NCBI GenBank assembly: GCA_963677275.1
Contig: OY781920.1
Location: forward strand, 1,009,960-1,073,959
Direction of reading: 5' to 3'
Length of the DNA stretch: 64,000 bases
From: an uncultured Paludibacter sp.
GTDB lineage: Bacteria; Bacteroidota; Bacteroidia; Bacteroidales; Paludibacteraceae
This document shows positions 38,116 through 44,709 of this stretch, in pieces. The number at the start of each line of letters is the position of its first letter. Within the stretch, counting starts at the first letter, position 1. The notes under the pieces are model-generated. The model was not told where the DNA came from and searched no databases. It saw only the letters and a list, made by a program, of their open reading frames with translations. Both the position numbers and the translations under genes were made by a program.

Positions 38116-38478
38116 TTATTTAATTTTCGACATAAATCTTTCTATGTCAATCAAAGCTCTTTCGTGCGTGCCGGTACCAATTATATCGCCTTTGCTGTCG
38201 GAAGCTTCGAGCGTAAACCTGTAAAGCCTTCCTTCAGTTTCGGTAAGAGTCGCCGTACAGCTTATTTTTTCGCCTATAGCACTTGCTTTTAAATGTTTAA
38301 CGCAAATAGAAGTGCCCACGCTTGAGCTTCCTTCCGGAGTATCAATCAGCTGCATAGCAGTGTTTTCCATAAATGCAACGAGTGCAGGTGTAGAAAATAC
38401 GGCTAATAATCCAGAGCCAAGTCGCTTAGCCGTCTGACTGTCGGTAACTATTGTAGTTTGTGTAAGTTGCTTATTCAT
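38116..38478 (-). CDS. hotdog-fold thioesterase, FlK (fluoroacetyl-CoA thioesterase) family
   Basis: GSG...VFSTPALVAFME, SVGT...HL and GTHER; Thr/Glu/His triad pattern. Confidence 0.82.
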   Translation of the reverse strand: MNKQLTQTTIVTDSQTAKRLGSGLLAVFSTPALVAFMENTAMQLIDTPEGSSSVGTSICVKHLKASAIGEKISCTATLTETEGRLYRFTLEASDSKGDIIGTGTHERALIDIERFMSKIK

Positions 38479-40015
38479 TATTCATTTTTTTAGTGTTCAT
38501 TTTCAACCATTTCATATATTCGTTAAGTTCGGTTTTTACCTCGGGTGCAAGTATCAGCAGACCTATTATGTTCGGAACAGCCATCGAGAGCACTAACATA
38601 TCGGAGAAATCGACCAGGGTATTCAGACTCAATACCGAACCTAAGGCTGTAATTATTAAAAATACGATTTGATAAGCTCTTGTTGCATAAATTCTTTTTC
38701 CCAAATGCTTTTCGCAGGCATCTCCTACCAGAAAATCGAAACTCTTTACACCGTAGTACGACCAAGAAATGATAGTGGTGTAAGCGAATAGAATGATAGT
38801 GGGTAACAAAAGATAAGGAAACCATGCCGAAACCGTAGAAAATGCCGCTGATGTAAGCGCTGTTCCGGCTAAATTGTCGGGATTGACATATAAACCCGAT
38901 ACGATAATCACCAATGCCGTCATTGTGCAAATAACTACGGTATCGATAAATGGCTCAAGCAATGCTACCAGCCCTTCGGTAACCGGTTTTTGTGTTTTTA
39001 CAGTGGAGTGAGCAATCGCAGCCGAACCGATACCCGCTTCGTTGGAAAAGGCGGCCCTCCTGAACCCGATGATCATTACACCTACAAAACCACCTTTGGC
39101 GGCATCGGCATTGAAAGCGCCGTTGAGAATTAGTCCAAAAGCATCTCCTACGTGTCGATAATTAACGCCAATTACCACAAGGCAGGAAACAATATAAAAA
39201 ATGGCCATCAGAGGAAAGAGTTTGTCGTTTACATTCGCTATCCCTTTTATTCCGCCAATGATCACCACACCTACCAACACAGCAATCAATATCCCCAACC
39301 AAATCTGATAACCATCGAGAAGGGGAAAAGTAATAATCGTTTGTGCCACTACCTGGTTGGACTGGAACATATTCCCAATGCCGAAAGCGCCAATGCTTGC
39401 AAAAGCAGCAAATAGTATGGCGAGGGTTTTTCCGGTTTTTGCCCAACCTTTTTTGGCTAATCCGTATTTTAAATAATACATTGGTCCACCTGAAACTGTA
39501 TTGTCAGTATTTATTCTTCGGTATTTTACACCTAAGGTACATTCGGTAAATTTAGTAGTCATGCCGAGCAGTCCGGCTACTATTAACCAAAAAGTAGCGC
39601 CTGGCCCGCCTAATGTAATGGCTACAGCCACGCCTGCAATATTTCCTAATCCTACTGTAGAAGCGCAGGCAGTAGCAATGGCCTGAAAATGTGATATTTC
39701 ACCATCGTGTCCATCTTTGTCGTATTTGCCCATAGCCAGGTCAATGGCATGTTTAAATCCTCTCAGATTGATAAACCGAAAATAAATAGTGAAGAATAAA
39801 GCTCCGAAAATGAGCCATATAATTATAAACGGGATTTTAATTCCAAGTTCAAAGCCTAAAGCGGCAAATGGATCCCAAAATAAAATTTTATCGAGAAAAG
39901 AAACGATAGGTTGAAAAAAACTATTTACATTGTCGCTGAATGCACTAACGGTATCTTGTGCAAAGAGGAGAGGGGATGTGAAGAAAAGCATGCATAATGT
40001 AAGCGTTTTTCTCAT
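38471..40015 (-). CDS. alanine/glycine:Na+ symporter (AGCS) family (start about 40015)
   Basis: TVGLGNIAGVA, GGPGATFW, GGPMYY, FSNEAGIGS and EPFIDT motifs. Confidence 0.92.
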   Translation of the reverse strand: MRKTLTLCMLFFTSPLLFAQDTVSAFSDNVNSFFQPIVSFLDKILFWDPFAALGFELGIKIPFIIIWLIFGALFFTIYFRFINLRGFKHAIDLAMGKYDKDGHDGEISHFQAIATACASTVGLGNIAGVAVAITLGGPGATFWLIVAGLLGMTTKFTECTLGVKYRRINTDNTVSGGPMYYLKYGLAKKGWAKTGKTLAILFAAFASIGAFGIGNMFQSNQVVAQTIITFPLLDGYQIWLGILIAVLVGVVIIGGIKGIANVNDKLFPLMAIFYIVSCLVVIGVNYRHVGDAFGLILNGAFNADAAKGGFVGVMIIGFRRAAFSNEAGIGSAAIAHSTVKTQKPVTEGLVALLEPFIDTVVICTMTALVIIVSGLYVNPDNLAGTALTSAAFSTVSAWFPYLLLPTIILFAYTTIISWSYYGVKSFDFLVGDACEKHLGKRIYATRAYQIVFLIITALGSVLSLNTLVDFSDMLVLSMAVPNIIGLLILAPEVKTELNEYMKWLKMNTKKMNNE

Positions 40016-40102
40016 ATATTCATATTTTTTGTGCAAATATACAAATAATCTCTAACTTTAGGTTATATGATGTTTGCTACAACTGCTAATTATTTTTAGC
40101 AT

Positions 40103-40145
40103 AAAAAAAACGGGCAGGTGAAGAATATAAACTTCACTTGCCCGT
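40103..40145 (-). terminator. terminator of the mmd operon
   Basis: AACGGGCAGGTGAAG/CTTCACTTGCCCGTT stem with A-run. Confidence 0.75.
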
Positions 40146-40192
40146 TCACTTTTTTTGAATGCTAAAGATATCTCCGTATAGAGTGCAAAGAA

Positions 40193-41506
40193 TTATCCAA
40201 GCAAGGTGAGCAATAATCCGGCAGCTACAGCCGAACCAATTACACCTGCTACATTGGGTCCCATAGCGTGCATGAGCAAGAAGTTACCCGGATCCTCCTC
40301 CTGGCCAACTACCTGCGAAACACGGGCGGCCATTGGAACAGCCGAAACACCGGCCGAGCCGATCAATGGATTGATTTTTTCCTTTAAGAACAAATTCATA
40401 AACTTAGCCAAAAGTACACCGCTACCAGTTCCGACAGAGAATGCCAATACTCCGATGACCATAATCATCATGGTTTGCATATTTAAAAATGCACTTGCAG
40501 TAGCAGTTGCCCCTACTGTAATACCAAGGAAAATAGTTACAATGTTCATTAACTCGTTCTGAACTGTTTTGCTCAATCGTTCCACAACACCACTTTCGCG
40601 CATAAGGTTACCCAAAAGTAAACAGCCAACTAACGGAGCAGCCGGAGGTAACAGTAAGGAGATAAATGCAGTAGCGAATATAGGGAAAATAATTTTCTCT
40701 TTTTTCGATACGATGCGTAACTGTTTCATGCGGATAAGCCGTTCGCTTTTCGAGGTTAATAACCTCATAATTGGCGGCTGAATCACAGGCACTAAAGCCA
40801 TATACGAATAGGCTGCCACAGCAATAGGGCCTAACAAATGAGGCGCTAATTTAGAGGTAAGGAAAATGGCTGTAGGGCCATCAGCGCCACCGATAATACC
40901 GATAGAAGCTGCTTCCTGAGGCGTAAAGCCCAAACCTACAGCTGCTAAATAGGTGGCAAAAATACCGATTTGTGCGGCTGCACCCAATAATAAACTTTTA
41001 GGATTGGCCAACATGGGACCAAAGTCGGTCATGGCACCCACACCCACAAAAATAAGACATGGGTATATGCCGAGTTTTACCCCCAGGTAGAGATAATCGA
41101 GCAGACCGCCTTTTTGAACAAAAGATTCCCAGTGTACATGTCCGCCAGCAAATAAATCACCATTGAACAGTCCTGCGCCCGGCAGATTGGTGAGTAACAT
41201 ACCAAAAGCGATAGGTAGGAGCAACAAAGGCTCAAACTGTTTCACAATGGCCAGATACAACAATACGCAAGCGATGATTATCATAACAATAGTTTCCCAC
41301 GTAAGTCCGGCAAAACCGGTGCTCGACAGAAAATTCAGCAAGCTTTCCTCCACATAAGATAAGCCTGAGCCCGAAGCATCTGCACTTACCTGCTCAGTAG
41401 CTGCTACAAGAGCAGAGTCGGGAGCAATAGTTTGCGCCCCTACCGACATGGTGATACTTGCAAATAGAAAAGCAAATAAAATTAAAATATTCTTTTTTGT
41501 CTTCAT
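40193..41506 (-). CDS. mmdB: Na+-translocating decarboxylase beta subunit
   Basis: [27 protein letters not shown] and [14 protein letters not shown] motifs. Confidence 0.93.
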
Positions 41507-41531
41507 TTTATATTCTCTTAATTACAAGTAT

Positions 41532-42263
41532 TTATTCAATGTCAAGCAATAAATCGTCCTGCATTACGCTCTGACCTGCTTGCACATGAATAGTCTTTAC
41601 AACTCCATCCTTTTCGGCTAAAATGCTGTTTTCCATCTTCATCGATTCGAGTGTGAGCAGTAAATCACCGCGTTTTATTTGCTGACCTACTTTAACAGCT
41701 ACTTTTATTACACTTCCCGGAAGTGGCGATTTTACTGGTTTTGCAACACCCGATGACTTTGGCGTCGGAGCTGCTGCCGGTTTCGGCGCTTCTGTGGCGT
41801 TAGTTGTTTTTGTAGGTTGAGCTACAGGAATTTCAGTGTCTGTACCTTCGAAATCAATCAGAATGTCATCCTGCATTACGCTTTGTCCCGGTTGTACATG
41901 TATGTGACGGATGATACCATCGTGCTCGGCAAGGATGTTGTTTTCCATTTTCATCGATTCCATGGTGAGCAATACATCGCCACGTTTTACCTGTTGACCA
42001 TTGCTTACAAGCACTTTCATGATGCTGCCCGGAAGCGGAGCCTTGATGGCATTTGCTACTACCGAGCGTGCAGGCGTTTTAATGGCAGCCACTTTTCCTG
42101 CCGGTTTGCGGCTCATGGTGCTCATCGACGATGCTTTTTCCTGTTTTTCAATTTCTACAGTGAACGGCGTTCCGTTCACTTCTATTTCGGCAATGTTGTG
42201 TTCTATTTCGTTGATTGAAACTTCGTATTCACTGCCATCTATTTTAAATTTGAATTTCTTCAT
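41532..42263 (-). CDS. mmdC: biotin carrier subunit with two tandem biotinyl domains
   Basis: Two PLPG...ESMKMEN domains joined by an Ala/Pro/Thr linker. Confidence 0.88.
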   Translation of the reverse strand: MKKFKFKIDGSEYEVSINEIEHNIAEIEVNGTPFTVEIEKQEKASSMSTMSRKPAGKVAAIKTPARSVVANAIKAPLPGSIMKVLVSNGQQVKRGDVLLTMESMKMENNILAEHDGIIRHIHVQPGQSVMQDDILIDFEGTDTEIPVAQPTKTTNATEAPKPAAAPTPKSSGVAKPVKSPLPGSVIKVAVKVGQQIKRGDLLLTLESMKMENSILAEKDGVVKTIHVQAGQSVMQDDLLLDIE

Positions 42264-42268
42264 AATAA

Positions 42269-42637
42269 TTATTTTACCAGATTATTTAAACCATAAATTT
42301 TTGAACTCCATGGGGAGTAACGCCTTTCGACAGTTTTGATTGTGATAACAGCGCTTTCTTCGTCGTGTACTTCGGCATAAAATAAATGCAAAGCCATTGC
42401 TATGGCTGCACTGTCGCCAGCCGATAAATGATCTTCAACATATTCCTTTTCGGTTGGAATCGTTGAGTTCAAATCGTTATCGACTGGATTTTTTTTAGGA
42501 ACCCGAACTTTTGGCGCTACCACTCTACTGAATATGTTCAATACGAACACAATCAGTACAAGTAATACAAACACCATAGTGATTGAGAAAAAAACTACAT
42601 TGAAGGCATCAGCCCAGTTTACTGCTAATATTTTCAT
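42269..42637 (-). CDS. mmdD: OadG/MmdD (gamma/delta) subunit
   Basis: N-terminal membrane helix; AAIAMALH...YSPWSSKIY tail. Confidence 0.82.
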   Translation of the reverse strand: MKILAVNWADAFNVVFFSITMVFVLLVLIVFVLNIFSRVVAPKVRVPKKNPVDNDLNSTIPTEKEYVEDHLSAGDSAAIAMALHLFYAEVHDEESAVITIKTVERRYSPWSSKIYGLNNLVK

Positions 42638-42648
42638 CTTGAAGTGAA

Positions 42649-44208
42649 TTATAATGGAATATTAGAATGTTTTTTCAATGGATTCACTACCTTTTTGGTT
42701 TGCAGCGCCTGGAATGCGCGGATCACGCGGAAACGTGTGTTGCGTGGTTCTACAATATCGTCGATATAGCCATATGATGCAGCCTGATAAGGATTGGCGA
42801 ATTTTTCTTTGTATTCGTTTACTTTTTCGTTTACAAATTTAGCTCTTTCTTCAGGATCGGTAATAGCGGCAATAGCGCGACCTTCGAGTACTTCGATAGC
42901 GCCAGCAGCACCCATTACTGCAATTTCGGCAGTTGGCCATGCGTAATTAAAGTCTCCACGTAATTGTTTCGAACTCATTACATCGTGAGCACCTCCATAA
43001 GATTTACGCAGGGTAACGGTTACCTTCGGAATGGTAGCTTCGCCATAGGCAAACATAAGTTTTGCGCCATGTGTGATAATGCCTGCATATTCCTGAGCCG
43101 AGCCCGGTAAAAATCCCGGAACATCAACAAGCGTAAGTACAGGGATGTTGAAAGCATCGCAGAAGCGAACAAAACGTGCAGCTTTGCGCGCCGAATCGCA
43201 GTCGAGTACTCCGGCAAGGAACTTGGGTTGATTGGCGACGATACCAGTAGAAACGCCATTGAAACGAGCGAATCCCACAATAATGTTACGTGCGTAGTCG
43301 GCATGTATTTCGAGGAATTTACCATAATCGGCAATACCGCTAATCACCTGTTTCATATCGTAAGGCTGATTCGGATTGTCGGGAATGATTGAGTTTAAGG
43401 CATCTTCCAAACGGTTGATAGGGTCGGTGCATTCTTCAATCGGAGCTTCTTCTAGGTTGTTTTGAGGCAAATAAGAGATTAATTCGCGGATTGTTTCAAT
43501 ACCGGCTTCTTCGTTGGCAACGCGGAAGTGTGAAACACCCGATTTGCAGGAGTGAACATCGGCGCCACCAAGGTCTTCGGTAGAGATGTCTTCGCCTGTA
43601 ACTGATTTAACAACCTTAGGCCCTGTAACGAACATGTATGAGTTTTGTTCGGTCATAAGGATAAAGTCGGTAAGGGCAGGAGAATATACAGCACCACCGG
43701 CACAAGGACCGAAAATGGCAGATATCTGAGGGATAACACCAGAAGCCAAGATGTTGCGTTCGAAAATTTCGGCATATCCGGCCAACGAAGTCACACCTTC
43801 CTGTATACGAGCGCCTCCTGAATCGTTGATGCCGATCACCGGACATCCCATTTTCATGGCCATGTCCATTACTTTACAAATTTTCTGAGCCATAGTTTCG
43901 GACAATGAACCACCGAAAACGGTGAAATCCTGAGCAAAAACGAATACAGTGCGGCCATCGATAGTTCCGTGGCCGGTTACCACTCCATCGCCAAGGTATT
44001 TTTCGTTTTCCATGCCGAAGTTGGTGCAGCGATGTGTTACGAACATATCGAACTCTTCGAAACTTGAATCGTCCAACAACATGTGAATTCTTTCGCGGGC
44101 AGTAAATTTACCTTTCGCATGCTGCGAAGCAATTCTTTTTTCACCACCTCCCAATTTGGCTTTAACGCGCAAATCAATAAGATTTTGAACTTTCTTAGTA
44201 TTTTCCAT
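42649..44208 (-). CDS. mmdA: methylmalonyl-CoA decarboxylase alpha (carboxyltransferase) subunit
   Basis: Carboxyltransferase motifs, KKHSNIPL C-terminus, and operon context with mce and the OadG/biotin/beta genes. Confidence 0.92.
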
Positions 44209-44298
44209 TTTGTATAAATATTGATGAATACTGTAGCATCACCATCCGGATCACGTGCCATACTGATGCACTACAAGTGTTTTTTTTCGGAAATTGAT

Positions 44299-44709
44299 TT
44301 ATTTGTTAGGGTTTTCGCAAAACTCGGTGAGTACTCCAAAAGTCGATTTAGGGTGAAGAAAAGCAATGTTCAACCCTTCGGCACCTTTGCGGGGCGATTT
44401 GTCGATCAAACGAACTCCGTTTTCAGCCACGCTGTCGAGATTATCCTGTAAACCCTCCACGGCAAAAGCAATGTGGTGAACGCCTTCTCCTTTGTTTTCG
44501 ATAAATTTGCCAACCGGTCCTTCGGGATCGGTCGATTCGAGTAATTCAATTTTGGTTTGTCCAACCTTAAAGAAGGCAGTTTTTACTTTCTGTTCGGGTA
44601 CTTCTTCTACTGCATAGCATTTTAATCCTAATACATTTTCGTAATAAGGGATAGCTGTTTCGAGGCTTTTTACTGCAATACCTAAATGCTCAATATGAGT
44701 TAAATTCAT
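44299..44709 (-). CDS. mce: methylmalonyl-CoA epimerase
   Basis: HIEHLGIAV, TKIELLES, GVHHIAF and FLHPKST...LTEFCE motifs. Confidence 0.95.
   Translation of the reverse strand: MNLTHIEHLGIAVKSLETAIPYYENVLGLKCYAVEEVPEQKVKTAFFKVGQTKIELLESTDPEGPVGKFIENKGEGVHHIAFAVEGLQDNLDSVAENGVRLIDKSPRKGAEGLNIAFLHPKSTFGVLTEFCENPNK

Follow-up and report, generated by a model that had tools for sequence, protein, structure and literature searches.

Biotin carriers of Na+-pumping decarboxylases

Characterised carriers of the Na+-pumping biotin decarboxylases, including those described in PMC7145394, have one biotinyl domain each. The MmdC protein of Veillonella parvula and Propionigenium modestum (NF047903) consists of an N-terminal segment, a linker, and a single biotinyl domain with an MKM motif, and it is encoded together with MmdA, an OadG-like subunit, and MmdB. 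The glutaconyl-CoA decarboxylase (Gcd) of Clostridium symbiosum contains two separate carriers, GcdC1 and GcdC2, within a 4A:2B:C1:C2:2D complex (PMC7145394). Each of these carriers consists of a biotin domain of ~70 aa joined to its N-terminal anchor by an Ala/Pro linker; there are two biotin arms per pump, present on separate polypeptides with one anchor each. In OAD, the membrane base is beta3-gamma3, and the tail of gamma binds the association domain of alpha (PMC7274780).

Tandem biotinyl domains within a decarboxylase-family protein have been remarked upon in the genome paper of Geobacter bemidjiensis, whose OadA (Gbem_1454) has two biotin attachment domains (PMC2996986). However, these domains are part of the alpha (carboxyltransferase) subunit, and that genome is without pump subunits. 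The 1.3S subunit of Propionibacterium transcarboxylase, a small free carrier that works between 12S-type acyl-CoA and 5S-type oxaloacetate/pyruvate carboxyltransferases, differs from MmdC in having a single domain and no pump; it is relevant to the possibility, weighed below, that one carrier serves two partners. Finally, lipoyl domains of the same fold occur in the multi-lipoyl E2 chains of 2-oxo acid dehydrogenases, one to three per chain, as tandem copies on flexible Pro/Ala linkers and in a number that varies with lineage. In E2, however, lipoate is attached at a DKA motif and the catalytic core is present in the same chain, and the likeness is one of working principle, not of membership.

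The locus considered here lies in the window, a stretch of 64,000 nucleotides from an uncultured Paludibacter (positions given without a genome label are those of the window). Its genes are arranged in the order epimerase-mmdA-mmdD-mmdC-mmdB, all on one strand, with the mmdA to mmdB genes 5-25 bp apart (Table 1). Genes for a carboxyltransferase, an anchor of the OadG type, and an OAD_beta pump are grouped with mmdC, which is the gene context of the carrier of a Na+-translocating biotin-dependent decarboxylase. Within the 3.56-Mb single-contig genome, mmdB is the only OAD_beta gene (a single match in a genome search), and there is one biotin ligase gene. The mmdC product resembles MmdC of Veillonella and Propionigenium in its N-terminal segment, linker, MKM biotinyl domain, and gene neighbors, but it has two biotinyl domains rather than one. 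Unlike the Gcd arms, both of its arms are present in series on one anchor.

The product exceeds the cut-off of NCBIfam PRK06549 (162.6 bits; cut-off 159), but scores 141.1 bits against MmDecMmdC NF047903, under the cut-off of 200; thus, the 243-aa protein is filed as an MmdC-type carrier by context and not as an equivalog. Since the equivalog cut-offs for both MmDecMmdC and mmdA are missed, assignment of the substrate rests on the operon context, namely the epimerase gene, and on propionate metabolism as a trait of the genus. Read in this operon context, MmdC is probably the carrier of a Na+-pumping methylmalonyl-CoA decarboxylase. In current databases, proteins of this kind are labeled only as "biotin/lipoyl-containing protein" or, wrongly, as "pyruvate carboxylase".

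Directly downstream of mmdB is a gene (38471-40036, - strand) for a 521-aa protein that, from its sequence alone, is sodium:alanine symporter-like, and a strong hairpin is present between the two genes at 40109-40146. The symporter-like protein could draw on the Na+ gradient generated by the pump.

Table 1. Coordinates, in the window, of the mmd operon, of the segments of MmdC, and of a second carboxyltransferase with its carrier
Feature	Position	Strand	Basis or remark
mmdB, Na+-translocating carboxybiotin decarboxylase beta subunit, 437 aa	40193..41506	-	PF03977 544 bits; TIGR01109 531.7 bits (cut-off 190.6)
mmdC, biotin carrier subunit, 243 aa, two biotinyl domains	41532..42263	-	ORF
MmdC biotinyl domain 2 (D2), aa 175-243, ESMKM at aa 206-210	41535..41741	-	Pfam, pLDDT 89-95
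K209, putative D2 acceptor lysine	41637..41639	-	
MmdC linker 2, aa 142-174, Pro/Ala/Thr-rich	41742..41840	-	pLDDT 42-47; 22-44 aa among homologues
MmdC biotinyl domain 1 (D1), aa 68-141, ESMKM at aa 102-106	41841..42062	-	Pfam, pLDDT 92-96
K105, putative D1 acceptor lysine	41949..41951	-	
MmdC linker 1, aa 41-67	42063..42143	-	pLDDT 40-65; 10 to 51 aa long among homologues
MmdC N-terminal docking (association-domain-like) segment, aa 1-40, four beta strands	42144..42263	-	oadA TIGR01108 alignment, AF2
mmdD / OadG-like membrane anchor, 122 aa	42269..42637	-	PF04277 OAD_gamma 36.6 bits (cut-off 27)
mmdA carboxyltransferase, 519 aa	42649..44208	-	PF01039 655 bits; TIGR01117 mmdA 779 bits, below 998.8 cut-off
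Methylmalonyl-CoA epimerase-like (glyoxalase fold), 136 aa	44299..44709	-	PF13669, PF00903
Second carboxyltransferase, MmdA-like, 514 aa	2298..3842	+	
EAMKM carrier, 111 aa	3906..4241	+	

A duplicated biotinyl domain behind one putative docking segment

In MmdC, the biotinyl domain has been duplicated internally, and both copies lie behind one putative docking segment at the N-terminus. Two stretches of the protein match Biotin_lipoyl (Pfam PF00364; 125 bits, cut-off 22.1), and D1 and D2 align without gaps at 69% identity and 87% similarity (E 3e-38). A preliminary description of this DNA had proposed two tandem domains, both with the ESMKM motif, that arose by duplication within an MmdC-type carrier; both the Pfam matches and the similarity of the domains bear this out, and the positions that it assigned to the domains were correct within a few codons. 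The DNA encoding D1 and D2 is only 68% identical, and more than 150 independent sequences share the architecture; consequently, the tandem domains are no artefact of assembly. The duplicated unit consists of a biotinyl domain plus the linker preceding it. Because D2 is not preceded by a second docking segment, MmdC is not two entire carriers fused together. Nor is it a lipoyl E2: its motif is MKM rather than DKA, and the chain ends after D2 with no acyltransferase core. As a comparison, the likeness to the arms of multi-lipoyl E2, which the preliminary description had also drawn, is apt; the E2 of this genome has two lipoyl domains.

The putative docking segment aligns with those regions of oadA and PRK14040 (also of pyruvate carboxylase subunit B) that immediately precede the biotin domain, and MmdC residues 17-135 align with positions 467-582 of oadA TIGR01108. 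A match of residues 3-43 to PCC_BT is weak (E 0.008). By Foldseek, ~145 columns of MmdC align to pyruvate carboxylase, a length sufficient for the docking segment together with D1. The AF2 model used was alignment-based, with 65 homologues; a single-sequence AF2 model gave a pLDDT of only 37 and was discarded. Strands at residues 2-37 of the docking segment are predicted with moderate confidence (pLDDT 65-72), and the remainder is modeled as two confident beta-barrels with disordered linkers (~45) and an overall pTM of 0.36. Given this pTM and the disorder of the linkers, the domains would have no fixed arrangement with respect to each other and may behave as beads on a string. The models of D1 and D2 superpose on the BCCP of Pyrococcus (P. 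horikoshii) at 0.9-1.2 A.

Both attachment motifs contain Ser in place of the Ala of EAMKM. ESMKM is found in 77 of the 85 motifs of an extracted set, nearly all of them from Paludibacteraceae, while carriers from other Bacteroidales families have EAMKM in 19 cases out of 20. Since single-domain members of the set also contain ESMKM, the motif is a trait of the lineage and is unrelated to the duplication.

Distribution, age, and exchange of the tandem form

The tandem carrier architecture is common in Paludibacteraceae and scattered or rare elsewhere. Across the order, 286 of 301 genomes have a match, and nearly all of these matches are single-domain carriers of 140-150 aa. The multi-domain form is present in only 4 of the 286, in keeping with the earlier statement that one domain is the norm. 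Within Paludibacteraceae, 90 genomes have a match, and in about 43 of them the carrier is two-domain; the nearest named relatives among the matches listed are Paludibacteraceae and Paludibacter MAGs. In the genus itself, the tandem form occurs only in this genome and in one that is near-identical to it; three congeners are single-domain. Of the 120 top-ranking clusters (90% identity), 118 are two-domain, each with two ESMKM motifs, and one is three-domain. In a library of 1.84 billion representatives (50% identity clusters), the best 150 matches include 39 with two MK[M/L/I] sites and 10 with three or four, although a few of the extra sites counted by this pattern fall outside the biotinyl motif; other N-termini and fusions to an OadG-like membrane helix also appear among these matches. 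Thus, of the suggestion that the architecture might already be common and characterised, the first part holds within the family. As to the second, no biochemical study of a tandem biotin carrier was found in the literature searched (subscription journals were outside its scope), where the nearest report is the remark on Geobacter OadA.

Several other multi-arm proteins were observed. P0139, P0164, P0169, and P0204 begin with an OadG-like transmembrane helix followed by two or three biotinyl domains, placing an anchor and a multi-arm carrier in one chain. P0047, a JGI metagenome protein of 343 aa, is a three-domain carrier with ESMKM. A three-domain carrier with EAMKM (364 aa; G234:C1:3210161-3211252, L054/L177) is present in another family, and the 86-91% identity among its domains indicates a recent, independent expansion. 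OadA-like alpha subunits of ~700 aa with two C-terminal EAMKM biotinyl domains are found in Rikenellaceae (L094, a Tidjanibacter MAG) and in other Bacteroidales (G113:C69, G258:C2, G234:C1:1563107).

The duplication in MmdC is old: synonymous differences (dS) between D1 and D2 are saturated, and even the DNA identity of the two is low, as given above. In a tree of the 69-aa domains, whose resolution is poor, the D1 and D2 labels cluster across genera, requiring 10-12 changes versus ~26 in shuffles. A tree of MmdB contains two deep clades (100% support), one of which includes all the tandem carriers of Paludibacteraceae. Within four genera of that clade, single-domain forms are the closest relatives of tandem forms (95-100 support), and this nesting of single-domain beside tandem carriers indicates that one domain has been lost secondarily and repeatedly. 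Of the single-domain carriers that arose in this way, those of genera g2 and g227 are grouped with D2 and those of g215 with D1. Repeated loss means that a single arm suffices and that the second arm is dispensable.

Identity between D1 and D2 ranges from 54% to 78% in different lineages. Two genomes (G343 and G368; L056, L057) have EAMKM in both domains, whereas their congeners have ESMKM in both, and no protein of Paludibacteraceae has one motif of each type. This joint switch hints at co-selection or at gene conversion between D1 and D2; a tree of 69 columns is too weak to decide on gene conversion.

The operon as a whole seems to be a mosaic, and its mmdC-mmdB module seems to have undergone exchange or replacement among Paludibacteraceae. 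Its MmdA and epimerase match those of congeners at 87-90% identity, and the epimerase is 90% identical to a syntenic gene in a congener. However, MmdB is only 53-58% identical to that of the sole congener with an adjacent copy, but 72-77% identical to MmdB of tandem-type genera (window 40193-44709 compared with L160, L161, and L163). In the congener G332 (L160, G332:C1:470000-479000), epimerase-mmdA-mmdD-mmdC is present with no adjoining mmdB; the only OAD_beta-like gene of that genome is 32-36% identical and lies 1 Mb away.

Function of the two arms

D1 and D2 are both under purifying selection. None of the 65 aligned tandem proteins departs, in either domain, from the lysine or the Pro/Gly framework, and dN/dS, wherever dS could be estimated (it is near saturation in many pairs), is 0.01-0.14 for D1 and 0.02-0.23 for D2. 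The tandem carrier is real, conserved, and under selection. Among 152 proteins, no residue distinguishes D1 from D2 at 80% consensus, the two consensus sequences being identical, and so there is no sign of subfunctionalisation. Taken together, the invariant lysines, the low dN/dS, and the shared consensus argue for two equivalent, functional attachment domains that would face the same partners.

Although far from certain, it is probable that MmdC is an MmdC-type carrier whose anciently duplicated, equivalent arms on flexible linkers add carrier capacity. In such a carrier, the docking segment would hold MmdC on the MmdB pump by binding the C-terminal tail of MmdD, the OadG-like subunit, following the logic of OAD (PMC7274780) and Gcd (PMC7145394). 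The single biotin ligase would biotinylate both K105 and K209, producing a doubly biotinylated protein with catalytically equivalent arms. Each arm would then independently take CO2 from methylmalonyl-CoA at MmdA and hand it over to MmdB, where decarboxylation would drive the export of Na+. By analogy with the extra lipoyl domains of E2, the second arm would double the number of biotins per anchored carrier, giving extra capacity and reach; its kinetic benefit would make it helpful rather than essential.

Metatranscriptome contigs from wastewater/sludge (two studies), 95-99% identical to the locus, cover mmdC, and one contig of 1333 nt extends from mmdB through D2 into D1; since RNA libraries can contain DNA, these contigs are weak evidence of expression. 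Two "joints" in RNA contigs (41954 to 42287/42294), each with 21-letter sides and seen in single contigs, were treated as belonging to contigs of other organisms.

An alternative in which MmdC serves both MmdA and a lysine-less OadA-like enzyme is unlikely, although it has more in its favor than the other alternatives. The complex would then function as a methylmalonyl-CoA decarboxylase, an oxaloacetate decarboxylase, and/or a transcarboxylase around one pump. The genome encodes an OadA-like (5S-type) carboxyltransferase (G000:C1:1758909-1760555; L008) whose C-terminal biotinyl-like domain is without the MKM lysine (e.g. ...CALQTRYGIEQI...; also L179-L181). This lysine-less protein is present in more than 50 Paludibacteraceae genomes at 66-85% identity, and it is conserved across tandem genomes (69-79% identity; 75-79% in the near-complete four). 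In these four (G325, G317, G312, and G320), a Biotin_lipoyl search at E<=1e-6 matches nothing but the two domains of MmdC. With MmdC as the sole biotin protein, any biotin-dependent carboxyltransferase in those genomes, including the OadA-like protein if it is active, must use MmdC. The lysine-less type is also enriched in tandem genomes (~32 of 43, versus ~22 of 47 single-domain genomes), a comparison confounded by shared ancestry. However, the link is loose: many genomes combine single-domain MmdC with this type of OadA-like protein, in G044 and G395 single-domain MmdC is the sole carrier, and when tandem and single-domain sisters within a genus are compared, two of the four genera show no difference in OadA-like status. 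Furthermore, neither D1 nor D2 has specialised residues, and in this genome the OadA-like protein could instead pair with the separate carboxyltransferase and 111-aa carrier of Table 1 as a classical transcarboxylase.

The OadA-like protein and these two proteins correspond to the three parts of a Propionibacterium-type transcarboxylase (5S, 12S, and 1.3S, respectively). In the single-domain genomes G044 and G395 (L182, L183), the OadA-like protein has no pseudo-biotinyl domain and ends in AAIALALHLAG, which resembles the conserved C-terminal helix of OadG/MmdD (AAIAMALHLFY in the mmdD product at 42269-42637).

A more specific version of service to two partners, and a still more doubtful one, concerns the streamlined Paludibacteraceae. 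In these, a two-armed MmdC, as the sole biotin protein, might couple both MmdA and the OadA-like enzyme to one Na+ pump, and the doubled arms might match a larger number of carboxyltransferase sites around the trimeric beta3-gamma3 base. If true, this would be a combined transcarboxylase and decarboxylase machine.

There is little reason to expect that one of the arms is non-catalytic, acting as a spacer that lets the other arm reach farther, as a docking or regulatory element, or as a store of biotin. Either domain can indeed be lost, as the D2-like and D1-like single-domain forms described above demonstrate, and in E. coli E2p one lipoyl domain is enough for activity to be kept. However, more than 150 sequences show no variation in the MKM lysine or the hairpin of either domain, and D1 and D2 are equally constrained. 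A mere spacer would be expected to drop the lysine in some lineage, as the C-terminal domain of the OadA-like protein did.

Very improbable is the earlier proposal that MmdC, through its second domain, also works with the carboxyltransferase at 2298, which is encoded in the same window and, at 54% identity, is closely paralogous to MmdA: this supposed "orphan" is followed directly by its own 111-aa EAMKM carrier, the pair also accompanies single-domain MmdC in congeners, only one Carboxyl_trans gene is present in four of the five tandem genomes checked, and the 111-aa carrier is absent from both tandem genomes searched for it (G325 and G317). In this genome there are three Carboxyl_trans genes, each with its own carrier; the third adjoins a biotin carboxylase and a 182-aa BCCP.

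For the Na+-pumping biotin decarboxylases, both the subunit stoichiometry and the way in which a carrier reaches the carboxyltransferase as well as the membrane pump are unsettled (PMC7145394, PMC7274780). Carriers with one, two, and three arms form a natural series in the Paludibacteraceae. The operons of tandem and single-domain sisters are otherwise near-identical in several genera, and such sisters are ready material for asking if arm number is limiting for turnover, reach, or coupling. The family presents, on the biotin side, a counterpart to a question long studied in E2, namely why its chains bear one to three lipoyl domains.
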